Source: Planctomycetota bacterium
Lineage (GTDB): Bacteria; Planctomycetota; UBA1135; UBA2386
Assembly: GCA_947444055.1 (NCBI GenBank)
Contig: CANEYR010000011.1
Coordinates: 8,534-72,533 of the forward strand
Length of the DNA stretch: 64,000 nucleotides
Direction of reading: 5' to 3'
Part shown: in pieces, positions 12,191 to 63,998 of the stretch
How the letters are laid out: each line of letters starts with the position of its first letter
How positions within the stretch are numbered: position 1 is the stretch's first letter
Notes under the pieces: model-generated
What the model saw: only the letters and a program-made list of their open reading frames with translations
Databases searched by the model: none
Told to the model about the DNA's origin: nothing
Position numbers and translations under genes: made by a program

Positions 12191-12709
12191 TCACTGGAAA
12201 AGCCAGTCGACCCACAAGATACGCATGACTCTGGCGACCTTGTCCGCACCCTTGGGAAAGAGCACACGATCCAATTCGTCGATCATGTCCTTCTCAAGAA
12301 TGCGCATGCCGGTCTCGGACCGCAGCTCTTCCATGCTGCGGTTCATCAGCAAGAGCAGCGCGGCGTGGTTGGCCTGATCCCAGTTCTGTTTGATCTGGTC
12401 GAAGGCCTGGGTTTCATGGTCGGACCGCGCCGTGTAGACGAATTTGAACTCGACACGCGCCGTGGCTTTGCCAGCGCGCGTGTGCGGGTTGAACGTCTTC
12501 TTGATGAGGTCCGGATGCGTGTAGTCCTCTTCCTCGAAGTGAGGCTCTTCCTTCACCACCTCTTTGACCTTCGGTGGGACCGCGAAGACGACGCCCGCAC
12601 CGCCAACGATGGCGCCGAGTGCAATGAGCACGATCGGGGGCAAGCCCTTCTTCTTCTTCTTGCCGTCTTCGGCTTTGCCGTCTGCTTCTTTCTTTTTGTC
12701 TTCGGCCAC
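12191..12709 (-). CDS. fliL: Flagellar basal-body-associated protein FliL
   Basis: It has a Lys-rich N-terminus, a single TM helix and a FliL-like C-domain. It lies immediately upstream of fliM. Confidence 0.8.
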   Translation of the reverse strand: MAEDKKKEADGKAEDGKKKKKGLPPIVLIALGAIVGGAGVVFAVPPKVKEVVKEEPHFEEEDYTHPDLIKKTFNPHTRAGKATARVEFKFVYTARSDHETQAFDQIKQNWDQANHAALLLLMNRSMEELRSETGMRILEKDMIDELDRVLFPKGADKVARVMRILWVDWLFQ

Positions 12710-27524: not shown

Positions 27525-27666
27525 TCCCCAGATCCGAGCAGTGCGCTGCTGGTGGCACAGCCAACACGGATCTCGCCACAGCCTGAGCGCCCGCCAGCCC
27601 ATGCCACCGTGCTCTCCTGGCACGCGACACGCCCGTTCCAGCGGGGCCGAACGCGCAGTCGATGGA

Positions 27667-28347
27667 ATGCTGATTGACACCTCGCCAGTCGATGCCGAAC
27701 CTCCTTGCCCGCCGAATGCCGTTGGCCCGATGAACTCGCCCCGCAACCTCAAGCGCCACGAAGGCGTCATCACCCGCCATGACCGGGAGCGCTTGCTCGG
27801 CCAGCGCGGCGCCGTGGTGTGGTTCACCGGCTTGTCCGGTTCGGGCAAATCGACCGTCGCCTGCGGCGTCGAAGAACGCCTCGTCGCGCAGGGCCGCCTC
27901 GTCTACGTCTTGGACGGCGACAACATCCGCCATGGCCTGTGCGCCGACCTTGGCTTTGCCGCGGCCGATCGCACCGAGAACATCCGCCGCATCAGCCATA
28001 CCGCCGCCCTGTTCGCCGACGCGGGCGTCATCGTGCTGACCGCGTTCATCTCGCCGTTCCGCGCCGATCGCGCGGCGGCTCGCGCCGTGCTCGGCAACGA
28101 CTTCCTCGAAGTGTTCGTCGATGCGCCGCTGGCGACGTGCGAACAACGCGACCCCAAAGGCCTCTACAAGAAGGCGCGCGCCGGCCAGATCCCGGAGTTC
28201 ACCGGCATCAGCTCGCCGTACGAAGCGCCCGAACATCCCGAACTGCACCTGCGCACCGGCGAGCGAACGCTGGCGCAATCGGTCGACGCCGTGCAGTCGT
28301 TCTTGGCCGCCCGCGGCCTGTTGGCAGCCTCTTCCGCCACGTCATGA
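27667..28347 (+). CDS. cysC: Adenylyl-sulfate (APS) kinase
   Basis: It has the canonical motifs [27 protein letters not shown] and [12 protein letters not shown]. The start is uncertain (27667 or about 27730). Confidence 0.9.
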
Positions 28348-29252
28348 CCAAGTACGCCCTCACCCATCTGGAGCAACTCGAGCACGAGAGCATCCAGATC
28401 ATCCGCGAAGTCGCCGCCGAGTTCGAACGGCCGGTGATGCTGTATTCGATCGGCAAGGACAGCGGCGTCATGCTGCGGCTGGCGCAGAAGGCGTTCGCGC
28501 CCGCGCGCATCCCGTTCAAGATCCTGCACATCAACACGACGTGGAAGTTCAAGGAGATGATCACGTTCCGCGACCAGATGGTGGCGGACCTGAAGCTCGA
28601 CTTCGACGAGTGGATCAATCTCGAAGGCAAGAAGGACGGCATCAATCCGTTCGTGCATGGCACGCAGCGCTACACGCACGTGATGAAGACCGAGGGTTTG
28701 AAGCAGGCCCTCAATGCGGGCCAATACGACGCCGCGTTTGGCGGGGCTCGGCGCGACGAAGAGAAAAGCCGCGCGAAGGAACGCGTGTTCAGCTTCCGCG
28801 ATCGCTTCCACCAGTGGGACCCGAAGAACCAACGGCCCGAGCTGTGGAACCTGTTCAACTGCCGCGTGCACAAGGGCGAGTCGATCCGCGTGTTCCCGAT
28901 CAGCAACTGGACCGAGCTCGACGTCTGGCTCTACATCCACAAAGAACAGCTGCCGGTGGTGCCGCTCTACTTCGCGAAGGCCCGGCCGGTCGTCCGGCGC
29001 GGCAACGCCTGGATCATGGTCGACGATGAACGCCTGCCGCTGCAGCCCGACGAGCAGCCGGAGATGCGCATGGTCCGCTTCCGCACGCTCGGCTGTTACC
29101 CGCTGACCGGCGCCATCGATTCGACTGCCGACACGCTGCCGAAGATCATCGAAGAGATGCTGCGCAGCCGCGACTCCGAACGACAGGGGCGCGTCATCGA
29201 CTTTGACGAAGCTGGTTCCATGGAGCAGAAGAAGCGCGAGGGCTATTTCTAA
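28344..29252 (+). CDS. cysD: Sulfate adenylyltransferase subunit 2
   Basis: It has the PAPS-reductase-fold motif [16 protein letters not shown] and a CysD-type C-terminus. The ATGA overlaps the cysC stop. Confidence 0.93.
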
Positions 29253-31198
29253 TGTCCTCCTACGCCCGCCAGATCGACGAGCTCGGCATCGACGGCTACC
29301 TCGCGCGCTACGGCCATCGCGAGATGCTGCGTTTCCTCACCTGCGGCAGCGTCGACGACGGCAAGTCGACGTTGATCGGACGGCTGCTCTTCGACTCGCA
29401 CATGATCTTCGACGACGTGCTGGCGGCGACCCGCAAGGCGTCCGAACGCTTCGGCACGACCGGTCAGGAGGTCGACTTGGCGCTGCTGGTCGACGGCCTG
29501 CAGGCCGAACGCGAACAGGGCATCACCATCGATGTCGCCTACCGCTACTTCGCCACCGAACGCCGCAAGTTCATCATCGCCGACACGCCTGGGCACGTGC
29601 AGTACACGCGCAACATGGCGACCGGCGCCTCCAACTGCGACCTCGCGGTGATCCTGATCGATGCGCGCTACGGCGTGCTCGAGCAAACGCGGCGGCACTC
29701 GTTCATCTGTTCGCTGCTCGGCATCCAGCACTTCGTGATCGCCGTCAACAAGATGGATCTGGTCGAGTTCCGCGAAGAGCGCTTCGAAGAGATCCGCACC
29801 GCCTACGCCGACTTCGCGGCGCGACTGTCCGTGCGCGACATCACGTTCATCCCGATGTCCGCACTGAAGGGCGAGAACGTCGTGCACCGCAGCACGCAGA
29901 TGCCGTGGTACCAAGGTTCGCCGCTGCTCGCCCACCTCGAGACCGTGCACTTGGCGAGCGACCGCAACCTCGTCGACCTGCGCTTCCCCGTGCAGCATGT
30001 GCTGCGCCCGGACCTCAACTTCCGCGGCTACTCGGGCACGATCGCGTCGGGCACGATCCGAGTTGGCGACACCATCGCCGCCCTGCCGTCGGGCAAGCAG
30101 AGCCAGATCAAGTCGATCGTCACCTTCGATGGCGACCTGCAAGAAGCGTTTGCGCCGATGGCGGTGACGCTGACGCTGACGACGGAGATCGACATCAGCC
30201 GCGGCGACATGCTGGTCGCCCCCAACAACGCGCCACCCCTCAGCAACGCGATCGAAGCCATGGTCGTGTGGTTTCATGAAGAACCGTTGCAGCCGGGCCG
30301 CCAGTTCTTGGTCAAGCACACGACGGTGCAGACGGCGGCGACCGTGACCGACCTGCGCTACCGCATCAACGTCGGCACGCTGCACCGCGAAGCCACGGGC
30401 TCCTTGCAGATGAACGAGGTCGGGCGCATTCGCCTCGAGTGCGCGCGGCCCTTGGCGGCGGATGCCTACAGCAAGAACCGCGCGACCGGCTCGTTCATCC
30501 TGATCGACCGCCTCAGCAACGCCACGGTTGGCGCCGGCATGGTCGTCGAACGCAAACTCGCCGACGATGCGACGAAGCGCGCCGCCGGCAGCGCGGACGC
30601 CGGCAGCAACGTGCGCCTGCAGCACAATCGCCGCATCAAGCCAGAAGCGCGCAAGCAGCGGTTGGGGCAAGAGCCGTTCGTGCTGTGGATCACCGGCCTG
30701 CCGCGCAGCGGCAAGTCGTCGCTGGCCTACGCGCTCGAGCAGTGGCTGTTTGACAACCAACGCCATGTGCACGTGCTCGACGGCGAGATCCTGCGGCTTG
30801 GCCTCAATCGCGACCTCGGGTTCAGCGGCGCCGATCGTTGGGAGAACCAACGGCGCGCCGCCGAAGTCGCCAAACTCAATCTCGCCTGCGGCATCAGCAC
30901 GATCGTGGCGCTGGTCTCGCCACTGCAATTCGAACGCGAACAGGCCCGCGACATCGTTGGCGCCGAGCACTTCCTGGAAGTGTTCTGCGATGCGCCGCTC
31001 GCCGCCTGCGAAGCGCGCGACCAGGACGGTCTCTACGCCCGCGCCCGCGCTGGCGAGATCGACAACGTCACCGGCGTCGACGCGCCGTATGAACCGCCGA
31101 CGAAACCGACCCTGGCGCTGGACACCGTGCGCGACTCGGTCGATGCGAACGTGCAGAAAGTCATCGCCCTTCTCCGCAGTCGCAGCCTTGTTCGCTGA
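29252..31198 (+). CDS. cysNC: Bifunctional sulfate adenylyltransferase subunit 1 / APS-kinase-like domain (CysN-CysC fusion)
   Basis: It has GTPase motifs [14 protein letters not shown] and NKMD. The C-terminal ~175 aa are APS-kinase-like but divergent ([17 protein letters not shown]). Confidence 0.92.
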
Positions 31199-31203
31199 TC
31201 ACC

Positions 31204-32415
31204 ATGGAACCAGTCATCGAAGCCAAGGGGCTCAGCAAGACGTACCGGATCTACGGTAACCCCTACCACCAACTGCTGGAGCTGATGCCGTGGAACAAGC
31301 GCCAACGGCACCACGCGGTGCATGCGCTGCATGACGTGTCCTTCGACGTCAAGCCAGGGGAGTGCATGGGGCTCGTCGGCTCCAACGGCGCTGGCAAGTC
31401 GACGCTGCTGAAGGTGCTCAGCGGCACCACCTACCCGACCGCGGGCAGCTACGCGGTGCGTGGCCGCGTCACCAGCCTGCTGGAGCTGGGGGCGGGGTTC
31501 CACATGGGCTTCACCGGCCGCGAGAACATCTTCATGAACGCGGCGATGATGGGCTTCTCGCGTAAAGAGGCGCAGAAGAAGTACCAGGAGATCGTCGACT
31601 TCAGCGAGCTCGGCGAATTCATCAACGCCCCCGTGCGCACCTACTCGTCCGGCATGGGCGCGCGCCTCGGCTTCTCGGTCGCGGTCGCCACCGAACCGGA
31701 TTTGTTGATCATCGATGAGATCCTGGCCGTCGGTGACATGAACTTCCGCCGCAAGTGCGTCGACAAAATCTTCGACTACAAGAAGCGCGGCAAGTCGATG
31801 TTCTTCTGCTCGCACTCGCTCTACGACGTGCGCCAGATCTGCGAACGCGCGATCTGGATGCGTTCGGGCCGCGTGCAGTTGCTCGCCGATGCGGTGACCG
31901 TCACCAACGAGTACGCAACCTACGAGAACAAGATCGCCGACGGCGCGGGCGACCCGGTGCCGTTTCGTGATGCTCCTGTCGTGCCCGACCGAGGCGTCGA
32001 TCACCCACACATCGTCGAAGGCTTGGTGATCGATCCGGCGACCGGCCAAGCGCGCAACCGCTTCTCGCCCGGTGACAACGCCGCGGTGCGCGTTCACATC
32101 AAGAATCCCAAGCGCGAGCGTCTGGTCGTCGCGGTCGGCGCCATGCGCACCGACGGCAGCCTGTGCTTTGGCCACACGACGCAGTTCGCCAACCTGCCTT
32201 TCGACTTCGCAGAGGGCCACGTGACCCTCTATCTCGACAACCTGCGGCTGTTGTCCGGCGAGTTCACGGTGCCGATCTGGCTGTTCGACGAGCACGGCGT
32301 GCATCGTTTCCAAGAACGGCCGGCGGCGCAGAATCTGATCGTCGCCAATCGCACGAAGGACATCGGCCTCTACCTGCAAGAGCACCGCTGGACGCTGGAA
32401 CCGATCAAGAAGTGA
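31204..32415 (+). CDS. Polysaccharide/O-antigen ABC exporter ATP-binding protein with C-terminal glycan-terminus-binding (Wzt_C-like) domain
   Basis: It has Walker A GSNGAGKST, the signature YSSGM, Walker B LLIIDE, and a ~150-aa beta-rich C-terminal extension. Confidence 0.88.
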   Translation: MEPVIEAKGLSKTYRIYGNPYHQLLELMPWNKRQRHHAVHALHDVSFDVKPGECMGLVGSNGAGKSTLLKVLSGTTYPTAGSYAVRGRVTSLLELGAGFHMGFTGRENIFMNAAMMGFSRKEAQKKYQEIVDFSELGEFINAPVRTYSSGMGARLGFSVAVATEPDLLIIDEILAVGDMNFRRKCVDKIFDYKKRGKSMFFCSHSLYDVRQICERAIWMRSGRVQLLADAVTVTNEYATYENKIADGAGDPVPFRDAPVVPDRGVDHPHIVEGLVIDPATGQARNRFSPGDNAAVRVHIKNPKRERLVVAVGAMRTDGSLCFGHTTQFANLPFDFAEGHVTLYLDNLRLLSGEFTVPIWLFDEHGVHRFQERPAAQNLIVANRTKDIGLYLQEHRWTLEPIKK

Positions 32416-32425
32416 TCGGCGCCGG

Positions 32426-32455
32426 TCGGCTCGGCTCGGCTCGGCTCGGCTCGGT
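32426..32455. repeat. Pentanucleotide microsatellite (TCGGC)x5 + TCGGT
   Basis: It was read directly in the convergent intergenic region between the ABC ATPase and permease genes. Confidence 0.9.
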
Positions 32456-32461
32456 CGCGGC

Positions 32462-32489
32462 CGTCGTCAGATCAGCGTCGTCAGATCAG
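32462..32489. repeat. 14-bp tandem duplication CGTCGTCAGATCAG x2 spanning the permease stop codon
   Basis: Read directly. The second copy contains the TGA (minus strand) of the 32481..33368 CDS. Confidence 0.9.
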
Positions 32490-33368
32490 GTCGGAGTACT
32501 TGTGCTTGCGGCTCATGAAGAACACGTAGCCGATCACGAACAGGCCCAAGGCCCACGCCGAGGCGACGCCGAGCTGCGGCCAAAAGGCACCTAGGCTCTC
32601 ACTGACGCCGCCGAGCGACAACCGGTACGCCTGGATCAATGGGAAGGCCGGGTTGCAGTTCGCAATCCACACCATCCACTCCGGCCCCACCTTGTCTTCG
32701 AGCAACTTCGGCTCCCAGAACACCGGCGACAAGAACATCCAGGCCATCGTCAGGATGCGCCACAGTTGCGCGGTGTCGCGCAAGAACACGTAGAGGTTCG
32801 CGAGCAGCAGTCCGATGCCGAGCGTCAGGACAAACTGCACCGCCATCACCAACGGCAACCCCAGCAGCAACCAGCCTGGCTGCGACACGCCCATGGCCCA
32901 GCCGGCGATGAAGCACACGATCGCGCCCACCAGAAACGTGATGATCGACGATGCCGCGACGTGCACGAGCATCACTTCGGAAGGGAAGGCGACCTTCTTC
33001 ACCAGGTTGCCGTTGTCGACGATCATCACGCACGACGTCGTCGTCGCTTCGCTCAGCGCGTGAAAGACGATGACCCCCGAGAACAGGTAGATCGCAAAGC
33101 CCGAGTCGGACATGCCACCCGCATTGCGATCGCGCAGCAGCTGGCCGAAGACGAGGTAGTAAACCGCAAACAGAAACAGCGGCTGCAGCAGGATCCACCC
33201 GACGCCGAGCATGCTGCCGTTGACGCGGCTCAGCAGGTCGCGGCGCAGGAAGTTCTGCACCATGAAGCGATTTCGCCAGACGAGAGTCGGGTAGCCCACG
33301 ATCGACGTGAGGTAACTGAAGGCTCCGCGCGAGGCGGTGGCGGCGTCAAAGTTGCGGACGAGTGTCAT
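32481..33368 (-). CDS. ABC-2 type polysaccharide exporter permease (Wzm-like)
   Basis: 295 aa with 6 predicted TM helices and the ABC-2 family pattern. It is convergent with the Wzt-like ATPase. Confidence 0.85.
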   Translation of the reverse strand: MTLVRNFDAATASRGAFSYLTSIVGYPTLVWRNRFMVQNFLRRDLLSRVNGSMLGVGWILLQPLFLFAVYYLVFGQLLRDRNAGGMSDSGFAIYLFSGVIVFHALSEATTTSCVMIVDNGNLVKKVAFPSEVMLVHVAASSIITFLVGAIVCFIAGWAMGVSQPGWLLLGLPLVMAVQFVLTLGIGLLLANLYVFLRDTAQLWRILTMAWMFLSPVFWEPKLLEDKVGPEWMVWIANCNPAFPLIQAYRLSLGGVSESLGAFWPQLGVASAWALGLFVIGYVFFMSRKHKYSDLI

Positions 33369-33510
33369 CGGTCGGCGGGCATTGGTCAGCGGGCGGCAGA
33401 CGTTACGGAACCGGCGCCAGCAGACCAGTGCGCCCTCGGGATCCGTTCATCGAACGCGGTGGCAACGGGACTCCAGGTGAACACACCGTCGCGAGCCTCG
33501 CCACCGGCGG

Positions 33511-34335
33511 TCAGCCCGCCGCCAAAGCTTCCAGCACCCGCTGCCGCAGCCATGGACGGCACACCACGATCTCATCATTGCGCGGATCCGGCCGGTTGTA
33601 GCCCTGATCCGAACCATCAAGACGGCACACCGTGAACCCCGCAGCGCGCGCCACCACCTCCGGCGCGCAGGTATCCCATTCCTTCAGGCCCTTCTTGTGC
33701 ACATAGGCATCGGCTTTGCCGAGCATCAACATCGCCACTTTGAAGCCGACGCTGCCGCAGGGGATGAGCTCGGCATCGCCGAGTTCGCGCGCGACCTTGG
33801 CGACGATCTCCGGCGTGTGACTGCGGCTGACGACCATGCGCAACCGCCGCGACAGGGGCGGGCCGTCATCGCCCGCCAGCACCATGGGCCATTCCCCACC
33901 CGCCCCATGCAGCGCCACGCGAATAGCACCAGCCGCGCATACCGCCGACACCACCCGGGAAATCGCCGGTAGCGCCACCGCTCCGAGCACGGGTCGCCCA
34001 TCGAGCGCCAACCCGACATGCACCGCCCAGTCCTGCCGTCCCTGTGAGAACTCCTTGGTGCCATCCAACGGATCGACGATCCACGTCCATCGCCGCGCCA
34101 AGCGCTCCGGCGCGTCCTTCGTCTCTTCCGACAAGATGCCGTCGTCGGGATAACGAGCCAGCAGAGCGCCCTGCAAATAACCGTCAGCAGCCTGGTCACC
34201 GACATCGCCAAGGATCGCTTCGTCCGTCCACCGACCGCTCGTTCGCACTGCCAACAAGCGTCGCCCCGCGTCCTCGGCAATGCGCGCAGCAAAGGCAAGG
34301 CGAGCGGCAATGTCAGCTTCCGTAGGCACGTTCAT
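33511..34335 (-). CDS. cysQ: 3'(2'),5'-bisphosphate nucleotidase (CysQ, inositol monophosphatase family)
   Basis: It has the IMPase motifs SEETKD, WIVDPLDGTKEF and EWDTCAP. Confidence 0.8.
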   Translation of the reverse strand: MNVPTEADIAARLAFAARIAEDAGRRLLAVRTSGRWTDEAILGDVGDQAADGYLQGALLARYPDDGILSEETKDAPERLARRWTWIVDPLDGTKEFSQGRQDWAVHVGLALDGRPVLGAVALPAISRVVSAVCAAGAIRVALHGAGGEWPMVLAGDDGPPLSRRLRMVVSRSHTPEIVAKVARELGDAELIPCGSVGFKVAMLMLGKADAYVHKKGLKEWDTCAPEVVARAAGFTVCRLDGSDQGYNRPDPRNDEIVVCRPWLRQRVLEALAAG

Positions 34336-34377
34336 GCCGTCCTCCCTAGCCGCCGCCGAACGTGAATGCCAGCGCGC

Positions 34378-35730
34378 TCACCCGTCGACTTCGAGCCCGC
34401 TCGGCAACGCGATGCCGAACAACCGTCGCGCGCATTCTTCGCCCTCCGCCAGCAACGTCGGGAAGTCCACTGCACAGTGATTGAGCACGCCAAAGCGATG
34501 CGAGCCAAGCCAGCGATACTCCCGCCGCAGCGACGCACCCCTGCTGGTCTCCACCCACAAGCGAGCCGCCGGATGCCGTTCGCGCAACCACGCCAGGGCC
34601 TCAGCACTCGGCGTCACCCCGGGCAAGCCATCGAACCGTCGAAATACAAAACTCGCCCCAGCCCCAGCCACCGGCGCCACGCGCGGCACCGACGTTGGCG
34701 ACAACCCCGCCGCCAAATGAATGGCCAGCCGCTCCAGATCGATGCCCGCCACCATTCTGTAGAGGGTCGCGAATTGCCCCGCCGACCGCGGGTTGATCTC
34801 AATGACGCGCACCGACTCGTCGTCGCCTACAAACAATTCAACATTGAAGAGTCCGTGGTCATAACCAACCGCCTTCACCGCCGCGACCGCGACTTCCTTG
34901 ACCTGCTGCTGCACGGGCTCAGGCAACCGCGATGGAAAGGTGAAGCCGGCGAAGTGGCGCGCGCCTTGCACAACGCCGGGATACATGCACTCATCCACCA
35001 CGCCCAGCACCTGCACATCCCCGCGCCACGCATAGCCGTCGACATTCACTTGGCTGCCGCGCATGGGCACTTCCAGCAACGGGCAATCGGTCGCACACGG
35101 CAGTGGCGTCACGCTCTTCGCCAACTGGGCGAAGGGTTTGTTGAGCAGCGCCAGCAGGTGGCGATCGACCCACGAGAGGCGCAAGTGCGCGGCCAGCTCG
35201 TCAGCGTCTTGCACGCAGCGCGCCATCACGGAGAACGACGCCTTCACCGGTTTGCAGAACAGCGGCCACTGCAGGCCTGCCTTGGCGACGGCGGCGGCGA
35301 GGCGTCGGGGATCGCGTAGTGCACGTTCTGGCAACCGCCACGGCAGCGCCGCCGCGTTCACCGTGGCGTCGGGCAGCGTGTTCGCGAGGGTCTGGCGGAA
35401 CAGCAGTTTGTGTTGGGCCCGCACGATGGCGGCGGGGTCGGCGCCCGGCAGGCCGAGCCGTTTCGCCATCACCGCCGCGAGCAGGCAACCAAACTGGTCG
35501 TCATTGGACCAAACGGCGTCGATGCGGCCGCGGTAGGTCGCGCACAGGCGATCGGCGAAGCGTTCGGCGTCGAAGGTGAGCAGCTTGAGCAAGCCGCGCG
35601 CGCGCATGCTGTCGAAGCCTTCGCGTTCGAGGTGCACGTCGTGGCTCTGGCGCAGCGCGTCGACACATTCCTGCTCCCACATACCTTGGAAGAGCAGGAG
35701 GAGGCGCAGCGGCGATCGCGGGCTCGGCAT
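34378..35730 (-). CDS. ATP-grasp domain protein
   Basis: 450 aa with a pre-ATP-grasp region followed by an ATP-grasp fold (VMARCVQDADEL..., VIEINPRSAGQFATLY). Confidence 0.7.
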   Translation of the reverse strand: MPSPRSPLRLLLLFQGMWEQECVDALRQSHDVHLEREGFDSMRARGLLKLLTFDAERFADRLCATYRGRIDAVWSNDDQFGCLLAAVMAKRLGLPGADPAAIVRAQHKLLFRQTLANTLPDATVNAAALPWRLPERALRDPRRLAAAVAKAGLQWPLFCKPVKASFSVMARCVQDADELAAHLRLSWVDRHLLALLNKPFAQLAKSVTPLPCATDCPLLEVPMRGSQVNVDGYAWRGDVQVLGVVDECMYPGVVQGARHFAGFTFPSRLPEPVQQQVKEVAVAAVKAVGYDHGLFNVELFVGDDESVRVIEINPRSAGQFATLYRMVAGIDLERLAIHLAAGLSPTSVPRVAPVAGAGASFVFRRFDGLPGVTPSAEALAWLRERHPAARLWVETSRGASLRREYRWLGSHRFGVLNHCAVDFPTLLAEGEECARRLFGIALPSGLEVDG

Positions 35731-35965
35731 CAGCGGGTAGAGGATGGCGGAGTCGGCGGCCGGTCACAACGGGGATGGAGCGGCGGCGGCGACGAGCGGT
35801 CGTGGTGGCGCTGCGGCGCTGCTTCGCGAGGGCGGTGGTGAATGTTCGGCAGACCTGTCGACGTGCGGGATCGATGACGGCGGTGCTGGTGTGCGGCGGC
35901 TCAGGTGGTGGCCACCCGGCCGCTGGTGGTCGGGTGGTCGCTTCCCTGTCTGGAGATATGCTGCC

Positions 35966-36018
35966 GTCGAACATGGACGTGCCGATGTTCGGCACTTCCA
36001 CCGAACACGAAGTTGGAC
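35966..36018 (+). other. attC-like or IS91-end hairpin element
   Basis: The element reads GTCGAAC-AT-GGACGTGCCGA-TGT-TCGGCACTTCC-12 nt-GTTGGAC. The right box fits GTTRRRY. The outer heptamers are complementary except for one position. Confidence 0.3.
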
Positions 36019-36167
36019 GAAACCGCTCCGCGGTAGCCCGCTCCTAGCCCCTCGTGCCGGTTGAGCGCGCCGTTCCTCCAGTCGCCACTGAATCCTCGCG
36101 GTCGCCCACGTCGTCGGCATGACACTTCTCGTCGCGGCGGGAGGTAGTCCCCTGACGAGGAAGACCG

Positions 36168-37007
36168 ATGACGCTGTTACGCGAGCGGATGGCAGAGGAC
36201 CTGCGCATTCGCAACTACTCCCCGAAGACGGTGGAGTGCTACGTGTCGATGATGGCGCGGTTCACGCGCGAGTTCGGGAAGCCGCCGGGCCAGCTCGGGC
36301 CGGCCGAGATCCGCACCTTCCAGGTGCGCCTGATCGAGAAGAAGGTGTCGTGGACGCAGTTCAACCAGACGGTCTGCGCGCTGCGGTTCTTCTACCGGGT
36401 GACGCTACCGCGCGACTTCGTGGTAGAGCACATCCCGTTCGCGAAGGTGAAGAGGAAGCTGCCGACGGTGCTGAGCGTCGACGAGGTGCGGCGGCTGCTG
36501 AGCGCGCCGACGAACATCAAGCATCGTGCGGTGCTGAGCCTGATCTACGCGACGGGCGTGCGACTGAACGAGGCCACGCACTTGCGAGTCAGCGACATCG
36601 ACAGCGCTCGCATGACGGTGCACATCCGCAACGGCAAGGGCGGCAAGCCGCGCATGGTGCCAATGTCCACGGCGCTGCGTGATTTGCTGCGCGCTTACTG
36701 GCTCGTGGATCACCCCCGTGACTATCTGTTTCCGGGGGTGCATCCAGATCGGCCGCTGCATGAGAGCAGTGTTCAGCATGCTTGCACCAAGGCGCGGTTG
36801 ATCGCTCGCATCGACAAGCCCGCGAGTATGCACACACTGCGCCACAGCTACGCGACGCATCTGCTTGAGCTCGGTGTCGACTTGCGCACGATCCAGAAGC
36901 TTCTGGGTCACGCGAGCTTGTCGACGACGGCGGTCTACATGCACGTGACCGGCCGGCTGCTGGACGCGGCGAACAAGGCAGTCGATCTGTTGGCGATCCC
37001 GACCTGA
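36168..37007 (+). CDS. Tyrosine recombinase (phage-integrase family, IS91-associated type)
   Basis: It has an N-terminal SAM-like core-binding domain (MAEDLRIRNYSPKTVECY) and catalytic residues in ATGVRLNEATHLRV, HTLRHSYATHLLE and GHASLSTTAVYMH. Confidence 0.9.
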   Translation: MTLLRERMAEDLRIRNYSPKTVECYVSMMARFTREFGKPPGQLGPAEIRTFQVRLIEKKVSWTQFNQTVCALRFFYRVTLPRDFVVEHIPFAKVKRKLPTVLSVDEVRRLLSAPTNIKHRAVLSLIYATGVRLNEATHLRVSDIDSARMTVHIRNGKGGKPRMVPMSTALRDLLRAYWLVDHPRDYLFPGVHPDRPLHESSVQHACTKARLIARIDKPASMHTLRHSYATHLLELGVDLRTIQKLLGHASLSTTAVYMHVTGRLLDAANKAVDLLAIPT

Positions 37008-37015
37008 CACCTGTC

Positions 37016-38176
37016 ATGGATCGGGCCACTCATGAAGTGGCCGACGTAGTCCGCCTCTTCGGCGACGCACTGTTGCGCGAAGGGGCGGTCACGCCGGCCC
37101 GGCGCCGCGTCATGCGCGCGCTGCTTGCCTGCCGCACGGCACAACTCGGCGGCCATGTCGAGTCGTGCGATTCGTGCGACTTCAAGCGCATCGCCTACAA
37201 CAGCTGCCGCAACCGGCATTGCCCGAAGTGCCAAAGCTCGCGGCAAGCGAAGTGGCTCGACGACCGCGCGAAGGACCTGTTGCCGGTCGAGTACTTCCAC
37301 GTCGTGTTCACGATGCCGGAAGAACTGGCGCGCATCGCGCTGCAGAACAAGCGCGTGGTCTACGGCATCCTGTTCGCGACATCGGCGGCGACGCTGCGCA
37401 CGATCGCTGCGGACGAGAAGCACCTCGGCGCCGAGGTCGGCTTTTTGTCGGTGCTGCACACATGGACCCAAGATCTGCGTCACCACCCGCACGTGCACTG
37501 CGTCGTGCCCGGCGGCGGTCTGGCGCCGGACGGCTCCTGGGTCGCTTGCCGTCCGGGGTTCTTCCTGCCGGTGCGCGTGCTCGGCGCAATGTTCCGCGGC
37601 AAGTTCGTGGCCGCGCTGCGGGCGGCGTTCGAACGTGGAGATCTGCGATTCCAGGGCTCGCTGCAGCCGCTGCGCGATCGCGCCGCGTTCGCCGCTTGCC
37701 TCGACCGAGCCATGGCCAAGTCGTGGGTCGTCTACAGCAAGCCGCCGTTCGGCGGGCCGGCGCAGGTGCTGAAGTACCTGGCGCGCTACACGCACCGCAT
37801 CGCCATCGGCAACCGGCGCATCCTCGATGTCTGCCCTGACGGGGTGACGTTCCGCTGCCGAGACCGCGCGCAACGCAATCGATCGCGCACGATGGTGCTG
37901 CCGGGAGTCGAGTTCCTGCGGCGCTTCCTGCAGCACATCCTGCCGCGCGGCTTCACTCGCTTGCGGCACTACGGGCTGCTCGCCAACCGGAAACGGGCGA
38001 CGAAACTCGCGGTGTGCCGCCTCCAACTCGGTGCGCCCATGCCGTCGACGGCGACGGTGCCGAGTGTGGTGCCGTTTCTATTGCCCGACGAACACTGCCC
38101 GGCGTGCCGCACAGGCCGACTGGTTCGTCGCCCGTGGCCAGGTCTTCGGATTCCAGAGGTCGCTGACTCGTCATGA
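37016..38176 (+). CDS. IS91-family transposase (zinc-binding N-domain + Y2 HUH domain)
   Basis: It has CDSCDF..SCRNRHCPKC, HTWTQDLRHHPHVHCVVPGG and LKYLARYTHRIAI, plus a C-terminal CPAC. Confidence 0.9.
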   Translation: MDRATHEVADVVRLFGDALLREGAVTPARRRVMRALLACRTAQLGGHVESCDSCDFKRIAYNSCRNRHCPKCQSSRQAKWLDDRAKDLLPVEYFHVVFTMPEELARIALQNKRVVYGILFATSAATLRTIAADEKHLGAEVGFLSVLHTWTQDLRHHPHVHCVVPGGGLAPDGSWVACRPGFFLPVRVLGAMFRGKFVAALRAAFERGDLRFQGSLQPLRDRAAFAACLDRAMAKSWVVYSKPPFGGPAQVLKYLARYTHRIAIGNRRILDVCPDGVTFRCRDRAQRNRSRTMVLPGVEFLRRFLQHILPRGFTRLRHYGLLANRKRATKLAVCRLQLGAPMPSTATVPSVVPFLLPDEHCPACRTGRLVRRPWPGLRIPEVADSS

Positions 38177-38434
38177 CGTCGCCTTGCTCGCTGACGACCC
38201 AGGGCAGTGCAATATCCGGTCGCGGATGCGGGCGAGGTCTGTACGTCGAGTGCTCAACACATGCCGTTCGCCACAGATCACGGGGCCTGCGACGACTTCG
38301 TGGCGTGAAAACCAAAGGGCAAGGGCGTCACCCTCAACCGTACCCTGCCACTCCGGCCCGCAGCGTCACTCAGCTACCTCGGTTGGCGGACCGTTACAGA
38401 ATTGCTTGCCCATAGCCGCTTGCACCGCGGCTTC

Positions 38435-38531
38435 GTCCAACTGATCCTATCCGGAAGAAGTCGCGTCCCGCCCGTCGCCGTTGTCGCGCATTTCGCGCGA
38501 CTTCCTCCGGATAGGATCCTCTTCGTTGGGC
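38435..38531 (+). other. attC-like recombination site A (97 bp)
   Basis: The site reads GTCCAAC (RYYYAAC)-T-23-bp arm-30-nt loop-23-bp arm (1 mismatch)-CTCTTC-GTTGGGC (GTTRRRY). Confidence 0.6.
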
Positions 38532-38548
38532 GGCGCAGGAGATCATCC

Positions 38549-38767
38549 ATGGCTGAGCGGTGGGAGTACAAGATCATCTACTTCAGCGCGGAGCGTTGGA
38601 CAGGCACCGGCCTGCCGTCCGACCTCAACCTGAAGTTCGACGAGTACGGGGCCCAGGGATGGGAGCTCGTCAGCACGGGGTCCATTGAACGGCCGTCTTT
38701 CATCCCGTGGGGTGCGTCGAAGACGGTTGGCGTCATCAGCTACTTCAAACGTCGGGTCAGCTCGTGA
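38549..38767 (+). CDS. DUF4177 domain protein (cassette 1)
   Basis: AGGAG lies 7 nt upstream of the ATG. The sequence WEYKIIYF...FDEYGAQGWELVS...SYFKRR matches the DUF4177 pattern. Confidence 0.8.
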   Translation: MAERWEYKIIYFSAERWTGTGLPSDLNLKFDEYGAQGWELVSTGSIERPSFIPWGASKTVGVISYFKRRVSS

Positions 38768-38777
38768 GGTTTGGCCC

Positions 38778-38846
38778 GCCCAACAAGCCGCCGGAGCCGG
38801 TGATCGCCGCAGCGGCGATCACGGCTCAGCGGCAAAGACGTTGGGC
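38778..38846 (+). other. attC-like recombination site B (69 bp)
   Basis: The site runs GCCCAAC...GTTGGGC with perfectly complementary boxes. Stems are GCCGC/GCGGC, GAGCC/GGCTC and GTGATCGCC/GGCGATCAC, with G38799 unpaired. Confidence 0.7.
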
Positions 38847-38855
38847 AGGCCGTCG

Positions 38856-39323
38856 ATGATCCTTGACGCGGGGCGGTGGAAGATCGAGGGCGATCGGGCC
38901 ACGACGGTGAGCTGCTACTCCTCGCTTCCTGTCGGCGTTGACTGCTCGTGCGCGGACTGCCGCAACTTCATGACTGCGGTTGATCGGGCGTTTCCAGACG
39001 AGTTCCGGGCAATCGCTCGCGGCCTGGGAGTCGACCTGGGCAAGCCTACGGAGCTTGCTCACTACGGCCGCGAGACCGCCGGTCTGCACATCTCGGGCGG
39101 ATGGTTCCACTTGGTCGGGGCCGTACTCGAAGGAGCAGATGCGTGGAAGGAGGTTGGCCCGGGATCCTGGACCGGAGCACTGGAGCAGTTGGTGGCAGGG
39201 TTCGAGTTTGGCTTCACTTCTCGGCTTGCTCTTGTCCGCGATCCCTTCCTTCGGCACTCGGTGGTGCAGCTCGAGTTCATGACCAGAGTGCCCTGGGTCA
39301 TCTCGGAAGCCGAGACACCTTGA
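38856..39323 (+). CDS. Hypothetical protein (cassette 2), 155 aa
   Basis: The ATG lies 9 nt after the R' box of site B, and the stop lies 2 nt before the R'' box of site C. It contains VDCSCADC. I recognise no family. Confidence 0.6.
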   Translation: MILDAGRWKIEGDRATTVSCYSSLPVGVDCSCADCRNFMTAVDRAFPDEFRAIARGLGVDLGKPTELAHYGRETAGLHISGGWFHLVGAVLEGADAWKEVGPGSWTGALEQLVAGFEFGFTSRLALVRDPFLRHSVVQLEFMTRVPWVISEAETP

Positions 39324-39325
39324 GG

Positions 39326-39395
39326 GCCCAACAAGCCCATGCAGCCGACCGGCGCCCCAAGCGGCGCCGGCGGCTGATGGCCAAAGACGCTGGCT
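39326..39395 (+). other. attC-like recombination site C (70 bp, degenerate right box)
   Basis: The site runs GCCCAAC...GCTGGCT. Stems are CCAT/ATGG, CAGCCG/CGGCTG and CCGGCGCC/GGCGCCGG, with G39341 and A39348 unpaired. It shares GCCCAACAAGCC and AAAGAC with site B. Confidence 0.6.
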
Positions 39396-39422
39396 GGACC
39401 ATCTGGACCTGCCCAGGATGCG

Positions 39423-39689
39423 ATGACAAGGAGACTCACCATCTCCCTGAAGCGCGAGCTTGGCATGTCGGCGACACGCGTCAGCATCGGAGCGCAGTGT
39501 CTCGTGCACGTCCTGGTTGCTGACTCGGCACCCCACAACTCTTCGAGCACACACCGCAGGTGGTCGATCACTACGGGAAGAGCCGCCCCACCACGAATCC
39601 ACATCTCGGCTGGTGAATTCAGTGAGGCGTCGATCGCCTCGAATGCTCTTCGGAGTCCGCTCGCGTCCACAGTTGCATCCAAGACCTGA
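39423..39689 (+). CDS. Possible cassette-3 ORF (88 aa), doubtful
   Basis: It begins 28 nt after site C and stops 6 nt before a truncated attC-like left half. The protein sequence is not convincing, and an antisense frame looks equally plausible. Confidence 0.2.
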   Translation: MTRRLTISLKRELGMSATRVSIGAQCLVHVLVADSAPHNSSSTHRRWSITTGRAAPPRIHISAGEFSEASIASNALRSPLASTVASKT

Positions 39690-39695
39690 CCAGCT

Positions 39696-39720
39696 TGCGA
39701 ACAAGCCCGCGGGCCAGATT
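39696..39720 (+). other. Truncated attC-like left half
   Basis: TGCGAACAAGCCCGCGGGC resembles the GCCCAACAAGCC starts of sites B and C. No matching right box occurs before the glycosyltransferase stop at 39747. Confidence 0.25.
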
Positions 39721-39746
39721 GCAGGCACGCCGGCACGCCCCATCCC

Positions 39747-42005
39747 TCACCCAGAAACCGGCACCGGCTCATCCAATCGCACAGCAACCTGCGGCAAGGT
39801 GAACAGTGGCTCCGGCGGCATCACGACGCGGCGCTTACCGGCGGCGGCAAAGGCCATTTCCTCCAACGCCATGGCCGGCGCCTCCCACGGGAACGCAGCT
39901 CGCACCGCGCGCGAGAACGTGCGCGCCTCCCGACGCAGCGTCGGCAGGTTTGCCAAGGCACTCACCAGCAACTGCGCAGCCGCGTCCGCCGACGGCTCGA
40001 ACACCCACGGCGTCCCCACATGCGCTCCAGGCAGTTCGACCGAACGCCGCGCGGAAGGGATCTTCACGGCCGCAGGCCCCACCATCAGCGCCTCCGTTGC
40101 CCCACCCTTGGTCGCCAACACCGGCAACCCACACGCCCGCGCCTCCAGCACCGGCAAACAGAACCCCTCCCCACGATATGGGTGCAGTAACACATCACAC
40201 GCGGTGTAGACCGAAGCCAACTGCGAGCGCGACAGCTCACCATCGATGACCCGCACCGGCGGCGTGCCCTTCGTCGCCCGGAATCGCTGCAACAGCTCGC
40301 CGAGATGGAACCCGCTGTAGTGCTGATCGTGCCCGACCGTCTTGATGACGACTGCGAACCGCGCCCCAGCAGCTCGCGCCGACAGCACCGCCCGCAAGAA
40401 CACGTCGAAGCCCTTCCGCCAGATCATGCCCCCACAAAACAACACCGCGGGCAGGTCCTGCTTCCACGCAACGAGGTCGGCGTCCGGTGGTGCCGCGTCA
40501 TTCATGGCCGCGTCCACCCCGTGTGGAATCACCTTGATGCCGCTCATCGGTCGCCCAGCGGCCGTCAACGTGCGATAGACGTGCTCACTGTGCACAACCA
40601 CCGTGTCAGCGTCCTGCGTCACGTGTGGAGTCAACTCCGCCGGCAACGCCCCATACTCCCAGTCCACACGCAGCGCGAACGTGCGGCACGCAGGCCGGGC
40701 GGCGCGAACGGGCCAACCTGACGCCAACCACAGGTCGACTTCGCCAGGATCACGACTGAGCAGGCATTCGAGTTCGGGCGCCCGCGCGCGGAATGCCGCC
40801 AACGAAGTGCGCAACGGCAAGGTCGGCACGAGCCGTACATCGACACGGTCGCGACGCAGCAGGGCGCGCGCTGTTTCGATCGACAACTCGGCACTGGATG
40901 ACGTTTCAAAGAAGGGCGCTTCCAGCACGACGGTGGGCCGCTGGGCGCGCATGGAGGGAACCGGCGGCGGCGGCGAGGCGGGCCGACAGCGGGTCAATTC
41001 TTCGATGACAAAAGCGCGCGCCCTTCGCCCCATCGTCGCCGCGGCCGTCGCCTCTCGGGTCGCGGTTTGCACGGCGACCGTGATCGCCGACGCCAAGGGC
41101 GCGAAGTGGGCGGCCGCGCCCGGCTCGTCGGGCACATTGCGGCCACCGATCGGCATGCACGTTCCGGCGGCGGTGAGCAGACTCGCCGTCGCGGCGAAGC
41201 GAGAGGCGCACACCGGCCGTCCTGAGGCCAATGCCAGCACCAGGGTGCGCGCCGACGACATGCTTCGCCACGGCAACAGCACCGCCACCGCGTCGCGCAC
41301 GTGCGCCGGCTCGAAGGGCGACACGATCACGTCCGCGCGCGGGTGGTCTTCGCCAAGCGCTTGCACGACGGGAAGCAGGGCCGCGGCATCCGCACTCGTC
41401 ACGACCACACGCAATCGTGGGCCGCTGGCGGCGAAGTGCTGCCGCCAGCAGGCAATCGCCAAATCGACACCACTGGCGCGATCGCCGTCGTCGACACACA
41501 CGATGGGTCCGTCGGCGCCGACCACCGGCAACGTCAGCCATGGCGCCAACTCGCGCTCGTCCAACGCGTGCAGCGGATTCTCCGTTCCCGACCACCGTAG
41601 TTCGGCGCGCACCCGCTCGAGCAAGTCGGCGGCCACAGCGCCATCGCGCGTTGGCAACACCGCGGTGGCGCGCGGCCACGTCAGGCCCGCTGCACGCACG
41701 GCGTCCGCGCGCTGCTGTGGCGACGCAAACACCAGCACCGGGGCGGTCGCGGCCACCACTTCACCCGCCGCTCGCATCAACAAGTCGATCTCCGCCGACG
41801 GCAGATGGGTGCCGACGCGCAGGTCGCGCACACCATCCGTCAGTGGCACCACTCGTTGGTTTGGCTCCGGCTCACCGGCCCTGACTGCGGCTAGCGATAG
41901 GGAGCAACGCACGCCGCTGCCGAGCGCCAAACGCAGGAAGCTGCGCAGAAGGCTTGCCACAGAGTCGTCGCCAAAGGGGTCGCCGTAGATCCGAACCTGA
42001 TTCAT
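39747..42005 (-). CDS. Multi-domain glycosyltransferase (GT-B fold, family 1/4-like C-terminal domain)
   Basis: 752 aa. The C-terminal half has the GT4 pattern (LFCGGMIWRKG...LLHPYRGEGFCLPVLEARACGLPVLAT). Confidence 0.8.
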   Translation of the reverse strand: MNQVRIYGDPFGDDSVASLLRSFLRLALGSGVRCSLSLAAVRAGEPEPNQRVVPLTDGVRDLRVGTHLPSAEIDLLMRAAGEVVAATAPVLVFASPQQRADAVRAAGLTWPRATAVLPTRDGAVAADLLERVRAELRWSGTENPLHALDERELAPWLTLPVVGADGPIVCVDDGDRASGVDLAIACWRQHFAASGPRLRVVVTSADAAALLPVVQALGEDHPRADVIVSPFEPAHVRDAVAVLLPWRSMSSARTLVLALASGRPVCASRFAATASLLTAAGTCMPIGGRNVPDEPGAAAHFAPLASAITVAVQTATREATAAATMGRRARAFVIEELTRCRPASPPPPVPSMRAQRPTVVLEAPFFETSSSAELSIETARALLRRDRVDVRLVPTLPLRTSLAAFRARAPELECLLSRDPGEVDLWLASGWPVRAARPACRTFALRVDWEYGALPAELTPHVTQDADTVVVHSEHVYRTLTAAGRPMSGIKVIPHGVDAAMNDAAPPDADLVAWKQDLPAVLFCGGMIWRKGFDVFLRAVLSARAAGARFAVVIKTVGHDQHYSGFHLGELLQRFRATKGTPPVRVIDGELSRSQLASVYTACDVLLHPYRGEGFCLPVLEARACGLPVLATKGGATEALMVGPAAVKIPSARRSVELPGAHVGTPWVFEPSADAAAQLLVSALANLPTLRREARTFSRAVRAAFPWEAPAMALEEMAFAAAGKRRVVMPPEPLFTLPQVAVRLDEPVPVSG

Positions 42006-62634: not shown

Positions 62635-63998
62635 CGCGACACTCCGCGACTCTGGCCCTGCGTCTGCTGCCACGCTTGCAGCGCCCCGGCCGGCAGGGCT
62701 TGCAGCACCGCCGGGAACGGCAGCGCGTCGCGTCGGCGCGTCGGCGCTTCTGCATCGCAGTCGACGAGGCGGGCGGTGTTGCGCATGCGCGTGCTAGTGC
62801 CGTCCACGTATTCCTGTTCGTACTCGGCCAGCAGCTCGCCTACCACACGGCTGTCGCTCACTTCGACGCGCGACCACGTGTCGGCGGTCGGCAGCGCCCC
62901 ATTGGCTTCGACGACGCAACGCTGCAGCCACAGCTCGCCGCCGGCGTCGTAGCGCCAGTTCTTCTTGTAGGCATTGGCCGCCTTGCCGCAGCGGCGGACC
63001 TCGCAGTGCAGCGCATGCGCAATCGAGCCGTCCTTCGCTTCGAGTGCCTTGCCGCAGCCGTCAAACAGGCAGCGCACCGCGAGCAGCACCGAACCCTCGC
63101 CGATCGAGACGCCCTTGTCGCCATTGCCTTCGAAGCGGCAGTTCTCGATCACGGCCCGCGAGGTCATCAGATCGACGCCGTCGTTGGCCGAACGCAGAAA
63201 CGAGGAGTCGCGGATGACGACGGTGCTGATGTCGCAATCGAGCGCATCGGCGCGCGCGCCCGCCAACACCACCCGGTCGAACACCACATCGGCGTAGACC
63301 ACGTGCACGAGGTCGTCGTACTGGTGGTTCTCGTGAAAGCGACAATCCTGCACGAGCACTTCGCGGCAGCCGTGCAGCGACACCATCGAGCAGTACTCCG
63401 CGAGCGGGACTTTGTAGCCACTGCCACCGGCGAACTCGCAGTGCTGCAGGACCGACTCGCTGCAGCCTGGTCCGTCCAACGCCACCGTTCCCCACGGGTC
63501 CTGGTCTTTGGTCTTCGGGATGAAGCGAATGGGCTGCGACGCCGTACCGCGTGCGGTCACCCTGCCATGGAACAGCAGCGATGCCTTCGGTCCGAGTCGC
63601 ACGATCGTGCCAGCAGCGATCTCGACCTCACCATGCACATCGCGCACGCCGTCGATCAGGACCTCCCCGCTCCATTGCTCATCTGCGAGCGACCGCCACG
63701 ACCGCTGCGCCGCGAACAACAAGTCGTGGACGTGCATCGGCAGAGACTCCCGTTGAGCCGCTCTGCCCACTCCCCTGCCGCGAGACGGGAAGACAGCAAC
63801 CGGAGCTTCGCCGACCCAATCGACCAGCCGAATGTCGAACGTCGCCGGCAAGCAATGCCGCGCGCCAGTGGAACAGTTCGGCGACCACAGCGGTGCCGAC
63901 TGTCCGCAGCCACCGAATGCGATCATCAAGCTGGTGCCGGTGGCCAACGCCGCCGGGTAGGGCACTTCCACGACATGCGGCCCGTCGGCGTGCTGCAC
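62631..63998 (-). CDS. Right-handed parallel beta-helix repeat protein (5' end at or beyond window edge)
   Basis: It has repeated ~22-aa turns (VQDCRFHEN, VIRDSSFLRSANDGVDL, IENCRFEGNGDKGVSI, LLAVRCLFDGCGKALEA). The ORF is open to the last bases of the window. Confidence 0.65.
   Translation of the reverse strand: MQHADGPHVVEVPYPAALATGTSLMIAFGGCGQSAPLWSPNCSTGARHCLPATFDIRLVDWVGEAPVAVFPSRGRGVGRAAQRESLPMHVHDLLFAAQRSWRSLADEQWSGEVLIDGVRDVHGEVEIAAGTIVRLGPKASLLFHGRVTARGTASQPIRFIPKTKDQDPWGTVALDGPGCSESVLQHCEFAGGSGYKVPLAEYCSMVSLHGCREVLVQDCRFHENHQYDDLVHVVYADVVFDRVVLAGARADALDCDISTVVIRDSSFLRSANDGVDLMTSRAVIENCRFEGNGDKGVSIGEGSVLLAVRCLFDGCGKALEAKDGSIAHALHCEVRRCGKAANAYKKNWRYDAGGELWLQRCVVEANGALPTADTWSRVEVSDSRVVGELLAEYEQEYVDGTSTRMRNTARLVDCDAEAPTRRRDALPFPAVLQALPAGALQAWQQTQGQSRGVSR

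Follow-up and report, generated by a model that had tools for sequence, protein, structure and literature searches.

A probable cluster of attC sites lacking an integron integrase in a Planctomycetota glycan operon, headed by a cassette-like IS91/tyrosine recombinase unit

Clusters of attC sites lacking an integron integrase (CALINs) are defined by two or more attC sites with spacings of up to 4 kb, and 38% of them have a neighbouring insertion sequence (IS) (Cury et al. 2016, PMC4889954). Integrons are known from Planctomycetes, including a group with a co-oriented ('inverted') integrase (PMC4889954), and taxon-specific attC models for Planctomycetes have been published (PMC8352920). Here we describe a locus on contig CANEYR010000011.1 of a Planctomycetota bacterium (assembly GCA_947444055.1), of which a stretch of 64,000 nucleotides (nt; positions 8,534 to 72,533, forward strand) was analysed as the window. 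With a probability of roughly 0.85, we interpret window positions 35.95-39.40 kb as a CALIN: an integrase-less fragment of a chromosomal integron of the Planctomycetota type, lying antisense in a sulfated-glycan operon, in the spacer that separates its GT4 glycosyltransferase and ATP-grasp genes. Three att-type sites lie within 1 kb, and no integron integrase (IntI) is encoded in the window. Features that the locus shares with other CALINs are the grouping of attC sites (two or more in 4 kb), the lack of an intI in the vicinity, an adjoining IS-family gene and cassettes whose function is unknown. Two features set it apart: the 'neighbouring IS' takes the form of the first cassette, and the array still has an attI-like remnant at its head.

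Two further groups of mobile elements and one property of IntI are relevant to this locus. In elements of the IS91 family, terIS lies upstream of the transposase gene (tnpA) and comprises a GTTC-type cleavage site and a subterminal palindrome; oriIS lies downstream, where one or more palindromes abut a 4-nt target (GTTC, CTTG or GTCC). These elements cause no target duplication, use a single-stranded circle intermediate and are described without terminal inverted repeats. A few IS91-family entries in ISfinder have an upstream integrase-like open reading frame (ORF). The IS1111-attC group consists of insertion sequences that target attC. Group IIC-attC introns are also attC-targeting mobile elements (PMC8876359). 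Finally, IntI inserts cassettes at non-att genomic (attG) sites as well (Loot et al., bioRxiv 10.1101/2022.09.11.507474).

A sequence-only reading of the window had described three complete attC-like sites and a truncated fourth. The letters and coordinates of the three read exactly as claimed:

38435-38531, + strand: site A, with R'' GTCCAAC, a T, a 23-bp stem with one conserved mismatch, a 30-nt variable loop, a 6-nt spacer and R' GTTGGGC
38778-38846, + strand: attC B, intact, with R'' GCCCAAC and R' GTTGGGC (match to covariance model R1, fold and covariation)
39326-39395, + strand: attC C, hairpin intact, R' degenerate (GCTGGCT; match to R1 with broken R-box pairs)

In a regular-expression scan of both strands of the window, pairs of RYYYAAC and GTTRRRY boxes separated by 40-150 nt were found at A and B alone, and both form very stable hairpins. 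The claim that the outer boxes fit these two patterns holds for A (GTCCAAC/GTTGGGC) and B (GCCCAAC/GTTGGGC) and fails for C at its R'. When either strand is folded on its own as DNA, z ranges from -5.6 to -7.2 for A and B (approximately -6 for A and -5.9 to -7.2 for B), and pairing of R'' with R' closes their hairpins; for C, z is -3.5 to -3.7. Of the three sites called complete, A and B are so; C is complete in structure, but the invariant GTT is gone from its R' and it is for this reason not a fully intact site. Among 15 members of the family described below, C alone has no T at the crossover-triplet column (C is found there, changing GTT to GCT), and on these letters the C hairpin is probably recombination-dead. 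Other details were as first described: the unpaired spacers are asymmetric (2 nt versus 6 nt in the consensus of the B/C family, 1 nt versus 6 nt in site A), bulged bases are on the left arm (the bulged G of B can be placed at 38799 or 38800), and packing is tight, with 10 and 2 nt from stop codon to R'' and 17 and 9 nt from R' to start codon (ATG at 38549 and 38856).

The truncated fourth site did not survive examination. Positions 39690-39770 have no fold (z = +0.86) and score 4.7 bits (E = 8.6) with the family model. The sequence TGCGAACAAGCC at 39696 (39696-39707) differs from the motif shared by B and C at 3 of 12 positions, and it is not among the window matches with two or fewer mismatches to that motif, which are themselves near chance (13 found, 7.7 expected).

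Sites B and C are members of a conserved attC family of Planctomycetota. An exact-pattern scan of a collection with one genome per species returned 15 loci (fetched loci are given L numbers here), 12 of which have the same hairpin as B and C; nearly all are in metagenome-assembled genomes of Planctomycetota, the phylum to which the window's own host belongs (MetH relatives up to 89% identical). The other three loci (L003, L005 and L016) are chance matches with no hairpin. Model R1 was built from a family alignment of 15 sequences, the consensus of which has a paired R box, an unpaired spacer of 2 nt facing one of 6 nt, and a bulge on the R''-L'' arm at column 25. Compensatory double-sided changes are present in 8 of 24 pairs, bearing out the earlier observation that structure is conserved more than sequence. 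On the + strand, B reaches 94.7 bits with R1 and C reaches 78.3; with filters off, R1 detects neither site A nor the supposed fourth site, and a weak match at 63857-63923 (20.4 bits) has no attC-like fold. In the relatives, R1 finds 11 same-strand sites per 8 kb in L004, seven sites in L010 and further same-strand arrays in L006, L008, L013, L026, L049 and L063, with each site positioned behind a short ORF. B-type arrays were also observed on short contigs binned as Brevundimonas (L009) and Minisyncoccia (L011). The L009 sites at 961-1029 and 593-662 score identically to those at 3299-3367 and 3666-3735 of L002 (Phycisphaerales), and mis-binning is more likely than cross-phylum transfer for these two contigs.

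Since the hairpins are GC-rich and stand right after stop codons, they could be read as repetitive extragenic palindromes (REPs) or as transcription terminators unrelated to integrons. We consider this highly improbable. Exact copies of GCCCAACAAGCC occur in the window at B and C alone, so that it is not a dispersed REP there; no further copies of the palindromes exist in the 64 kb, and those found elsewhere are in arrays behind short ORFs. No T-run is present at the hairpins. Strand-specific core boxes and the asymmetric spacer are kept across IntI-linked arrays throughout the phylum, and R1 is sensitive to strand (94.7 bits on one strand of B versus 28.6 on the other). An Rfam scan of the window gave no matches, Rfam having no attC family.

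The same attC family is linked to integron integrases in relatives, IntI being called with TIGR02249 (curated cutoff 265 bits). The IntI proteins of L023 and L037 score 416 and 432 bits, respectively, against TIGR02249 in one full-length stretch, and their genes immediately precede site A and B-type attC sites, in the same orientation; in L029, an IntI (410 bits) is followed by the site-A hairpin. The layout of L023 and L037 (intI, attI region and cassettes on one strand) is of the co-oriented 'inverted integrase' type. The window has its attC family in common with such sedentary chromosomal integrons of Planctomycetes, the order of which recurs in L023 and L037; unlike them, it has no integrase and just three att-type sites. 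A tblastn search of the window with two Planctomycetota IntI proteins found no integron integrase, detecting only a 279-amino-acid (aa) recombinase, int279, and no intI remnant near the attI-like stretch. We were also unable to find intI in the 8-kb stretches of L002, L004, L008, L010, L013, L014 and L015, which are arbitrary cuts of longer contigs. The family's link to IntI in relatives and the lack of IntI in the window agree with the CALIN assignment made from the sequence alone.

36168-37007, + strand: int279, a 279-aa tyrosine recombinase, IntI/Xer-like (PF13495 and PF00589)

If int279 were an unusually short IntI belonging to this array, the locus would be a complete co-oriented integron and no CALIN. 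Its best solved relative is VchIntIA (2a3v), it bears the IntI-type N-terminal domain PF13495, its catalytic R, K, H-x-x-R, H and Y are all present, and its gene precedes the array on the same strand, which is the layout of 'inverted-integrase' integrons. However, int279 reaches 197.5 bits with TIGR02249 against the cutoff of 265 and 139.6 with PRK15417 against 435, and both matches are split in two stretches. Residues 173-195 of int279 align opposite residues 176-240 of VchIntIA, indicating that approximately 40 aa of an IntI-specific segment are missing, and the same gap is seen against the IntI of L023 and L037. In both of those loci, an int279 homologue is present besides the true IntI. 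Furthermore, int279 always travels with an IS91 transposase in a unit bounded by core sites, including at internal array positions and outside arrays. It is thus very unlikely that int279 serves as the array's integrase. The earlier judgement that the 279-aa protein is not IntI stands (below the TIGR02249 cutoff and lacking an IntI-specific segment of some 35-45 aa), and with no IntI in the window the locus therefore falls within the definition of a CALIN.

The following features mark the head of the array and its surroundings:

35950-36011, + strand: attI-like remnant, homologous to the left flank of L028 and, in L023, to the stretch that separates intI from the unit
34378-35730, - strand: ATP-grasp gene, native left flank (Pfam ATP-grasp_4)
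39747-42005, - strand: GT4 glycosyltransferase gene, native right flank (Pfam Glyco_trans_1_4 / Glycos_transf_1)
39396-39746, no strand: non-coding tail from site C to the GT4 stop codon, including some native spacer (no signal in GC content at third codon positions [GC3], nothing matched in Pfam or NCBIfam, and neither a fold nor a model match)

The attI-like remnant is identical to L023 at 41 of 58 positions (a score reached in 1 of 500 shuffles) and to L028 at 24 of 28 (0 of 500). The sequence ATGTTCGGCA occurs twice upstream of the unit, at 35843-35852 and 35985-35994 (142 nt apart), and GTTCGG-type repeats are also seen in the IntI-proximal region of L023; these repeats could be integrase-binding direct repeats of attI, or chance.

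Three related contigs (L050-L053), whose ATP-grasp protein is 67-68% identical, encode, in this order, the GT4, the ATP-grasp protein, an inositol-phosphatase-family protein and an ABC-2 permease. In these, the spacer between GT4 and the downstream ATP-grasp gene is 42-74 nt in length, versus 4,016 nt in the window (35731-39746): approximately 4 kb has been inserted in a short operon spacer, and the relatives have the empty site. This confirms the claim that the island interrupts a glycan locus. The inserted genes are antisense to the operon. The same island is found on a second assembly (L001), and in a tblastx comparison of the left and tail segments with all fetched loci this identical locus was the only match. 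No coding signal was found in 35731-35949 or 39396-39746. The island was also said to be visibly less GC-rich than its flanks, which is not borne out: the cassette part has a GC content of 61-63%, versus 67-70% for the immediate flanks, and this dip of 3-6 points is inside the normal range of the window (60.7-70.4% in 1-kb bins). Within 27541-35730, the window encodes two APS kinases, a CysN/CysC-type fusion, a CysQ-like protein of the inositol-phosphatase family, a Wzm/Wzt-type ABC-2 exporter and the ATP-grasp protein, which suggests that the neighbourhood is a sulfated-polysaccharide locus conserved in related Planctomycetota.

On the + strand, the array begins with the attI-like remnant of approximately 60 nt, followed by a 2.5-kb unit with site A, a DUF4177 cassette with attC B and a 155-aa cassette with attC C. 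By analogy with established integron biology, each attC would fold as a single strand into a hairpin of R box, unpaired spacer, L box and stem that is recognised by IntI, which would carry out exchange at G|TT. The array would be static unless IntI were supplied in trans. From their sequences, A and B are predicted to be competent for exchange, and C, having no GTT, probably marks the dead end of the array. The fragment may have arrived by decay of a resident integron, by IntI-mediated insertion at a non-att site or by an IS-linked rearrangement; both its arrival and the competence of its sites are inferred. Insertion at attG would explain cassettes in an ordinary intergenic spacer far from an integrase. 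Such a reaction fits incompletely, as the fragment has an attI-like remnant, which is not expected in a cassette circle; the remnant at the array head thus disfavours simple insertion of a cassette circle.

Several observations weigh against the interpretation of the locus as a CALIN with three att-type sites. The bulged bases are C or T on the bottom strand, whereas the canonical extrahelical bases of attC sites of the aadA type are G and T. R1 does not recognise site A, and the attC status of A therefore rests on its architecture and on the behaviour of its junctions. The identity of the site-A stem among copies (0.9) exceeds that of the coding genes (0.76-0.81), a pattern that suits a transposon end better than an attC. 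The source genome has no known IntI, the search having covered the 64-kb window. Lastly, the exact junctions of the island cannot be located, the native spacers of the relatives being too diverged to place them, and approximately 20 nt before the ATP-grasp start look native.

The sequence-only reading had listed site A as a palindrome upstream of the first ORF. This site does not stand alone as a stray attC; it forms the attC-like 3' end of a 2.5-kb unit (36012-38531) that comprises int279 and an IS91 transposase, and so this pair of genes is part of the array and not a neighbour of it. In addition to int279, the unit has the following features:

36012-36066, + strand: left end of the unit, GTTGGAC (a GTTRRRY-type core) followed by a small palindrome, ACCGC-TCC-GCGGT
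37016-38176, + strand: IS91-family Y2 HUH transposase (NF033538, 423.8 bits, cutoff 125; Zn_Tnp_IS91 [PF14319] and Y2_Tnp [PF04986])
38408-38531, + strand: right end of the unit, including site A (fold, pairing, conservation among copies and divergence of flanks after GTT)

The transposase translation shows HPHVH and YLARY motifs. Its homologues number in the thousands, mostly in Planctomycetota metagenomes and mostly on contigs of 2-3 kb that break at the ends of the unit. Among eight copies, the ends (55 nt on the left and approximately 125 nt on the right, without the loop) have identities of 0.83-0.91, versus 0.76-0.81 for the genes and 0.33-0.48 for the internal spacers. The left end, with the consensus GTTGRAC-GAAACCGCTNCGCGGTAGC, has a mean pairwise identity of 0.88, versus 0.48 in the next 100 nt, and within site A the arms are at 0.83-0.91 and the loop at approximately 0.5. 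The left core is the reverse complement of R'', and the two covary: GTTGAAC is found with GTTCAAC, and GTTGGAC with GTCCAAC (as in the window). In all, the ends are complementary over approximately 17 nt.

Further copies of site A were collected in a metagenome scan with the 18-mer of its right arm, which returned 20 loci; 13 are true copies and seven are chance matches. Across the 13 copies, 94% of alignment cells are paired, versus 31-43% for slid partners, 4 of 29 pairs are compensated and the 30-nt loop is variable. One stem position (window 38456/38507, alignment columns 22/74) lacks a Watson-Crick pair in every copy (the combinations being A·C, C·C or C·A) and has invariant pairs as neighbours; by analogy with an extrahelical base, it may be a recognition feature.

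In all 13 copies, conservation stops after C-GTT, and the four bases that follow GTT differ (GGGC, ATGC, AGCT, GGCC, AGAT and TTGG). B-type attC arrays follow site-A copies on the same strand. On the left, the junction falls at the exact crossover point of five different B-type attC sites (L025, L026, L035, L038/39 and L063) or at the IntI-proximal region (L023 and L037, and also L028 and the window), while no att site is recognisable in L018, L047, L048 and L062. Flanks at both borders change exactly at G|TT, and GCA_020638735.1 has two copies of the unit with identical transposase and site A and different flanks. Because it is bounded by core sites, positioned at attC and next to intI, and flanked by changes exactly at G|TT, the unit behaves like a cassette: by every structural criterion, it occupies arrays as a gene cassette with site A as its attC. 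A first reading of GTTGGAC/GTCCAAC as plain terminal inverted repeats of an IS inside an attC was dropped, as the left end is fused exactly to the crossover point of five attC sites.

Several copies depart from the standard form. In L015, a decayed IS91 remnant is followed by a site-A copy that is 93% identical, with similarity ending right after GTTGGGCG; at 1515-2173 of this locus, 46 N-terminal codons of an IntI/Xer-like recombinase run in frame into the C-terminal half of an IS91 transposase, which marks an internal deletion in a diverged copy of the unit. L026 (reverse strand, 442-992) has a 460-nt derivative inside an array, with both conserved ends and no genes, and L047 has a second site-A-type site (12578-12674) 1.1 kb after the first; these are MITE-like (miniature inverted-repeat transposable element) or decayed copies. 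In L054 (2988-3053 and 5460-5620) and L055, the unit abuts the R'' side of an attC in an oppositely oriented array, and downstream of site A in L054 come first a partial tandem copy of that site and next efflux genes instead of an array. The arrangement reflects either a rearrangement or an assembly chimera. In L029 (reverse strand, approximately 100-330 nt from the contig end), IntI and an attI-like region are followed directly by the site-A hairpin, with the R'' box and the recombinase and transposase genes absent. The hairpin is identical to that of the unit-bearing L025 (1054-1152), and its 6-nt spacers, GCAGAG and CTCTGC, are perfectly complementary; L029 could reflect precise loss of the unit or a different ancestral state.

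Whether IntI or the unit's own enzymes move it is less clear, as the rules of the IS91 family with a GTTN target and IntI-mediated exchange predict the same junctions. In the alternative to IntI-mediated movement, site A would be an oriIS-like hairpin acting in cis as one end of a self-mobile element of the IS91 family. Such an element would encode a tyrosine recombinase as well and would insert 5' of GTT-type targets, with a preference for attC and attI cores. The unit would then be an integron-targeting insertion sequence, and the adjoining array may owe its location to IS-linked events. The borders are compatible with IS91 rules: GTTG and a small palindrome (ACCGC..GCGGT) make up the left border, the right-hand hairpin abuts GTTN, and there is no duplication. 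The higher conservation of the ends than of genes and internal spacers, the thousands of transposase homologues on contigs broken at the unit ends and the four left junctions with no recognisable att site also favour self-movement, as do the gene-less mini-derivatives (L026) and the junction of L054/L055 at the R'' side of an inverted attC, an arrangement that bottom-strand recombination by IntI should seldom produce. On the other hand, a GTTN target alone would not place 5 of 12 independent left junctions on an attC crossover and at least two on the IntI-proximal site, which IntI-mediated exchange predicts directly. Classic features of attC are seen in the covarying complementarity of R'' and the left core, in the asymmetry of the spacer and in the variability of the loop, and where an array lies downstream, it always has the orientation of the unit. 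Moreover, end complementarity of approximately 17 nt contrasts with a family described without terminal inverted repeats, and canonical one-ended IS91 transposition takes along DNA beyond terIS (upstream) and not downstream cassettes. We consider the identification of site A as the end of a self-mobile element plausible, though somewhat short of an even chance, and regard the IntI-moved and self-moved readings of the unit as roughly equal.

The unit resembles the IS1111-attC group and the IIC-attC introns in its recurrent site-specific presence at integron recombination sites. Unlike the unit, those elements insert in or beside attC and bring no attC of their own; the unit has its own attC-like site, cassette-like bounds at core sites, and a Y2 HUH transposase together with a tyrosine recombinase. 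With IS91 and ISCR elements it shares the Y2 HUH transposase, hairpin ends, a GTT-type tetranucleotide at both borders, the absence of target duplication and an association with integrons. In contrast to the unit, ISCR1 of complex class 1 integrons lies beyond the 3'-conserved segment and not at cassette crossover points, and the IS91 family is described without inverted-repeat ends. We found no description in the literature of an IS91 and recombinase unit as a cassette; such silence is weak evidence of novelty, and a cassette-formatted IS91/recombinase passenger is apparently undescribed. Tentatively, the unit may be an undescribed integron hitch-hiker: self-mobile and cassette-shaped, with its own attC-like hairpin and cores, it would use or mimic att sites (attI first, attC next) as landing pads, perhaps seeding CALINs across Planctomycetota genomes.

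Downstream of the unit, the array has two cassette ORFs:

38549-38767, + strand: cassette ORF1, 72 aa, DUF4177 (PF13783, 26 bits, cutoff 25)
38856-39323, + strand: cassette ORF2, 155 aa, from an uncharacterised protein family in which a CxCxxC motif is invariant

ORF1 has a GC3 of 0.84 and an AGGAG 8 nt before its ATG, and ORF2 has a GC3 of 0.74. The family of ORF2 has 1082 cluster representatives at E of 1e-3 or below, with invariant C30, C32 and C35 in the motif CxCxxC(RNF); no relatives of ORF2 were matched in Pfam, NCBIfam or the PDB.

The CALIN itself is one more example of a well-described class. The comparison with the empty site, in which approximately 4 kb occupies a spacer of 42-74 nt, documents that cassette clusters end up far from an integrase, and the attI-like remnant argues that this CALIN derives from a once-complete integron or a fragment of one. 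The widespread IS91/tyrosine recombinase pair has exactly the packaging of a cassette and turns up repeatedly at the crossover points of attI and attC. If IntI moves the unit, it would be a very large cassette carrying transposition genes; if the unit moves itself, it would be a new att-site-targeting element that links rolling-circle transposons and integrons.

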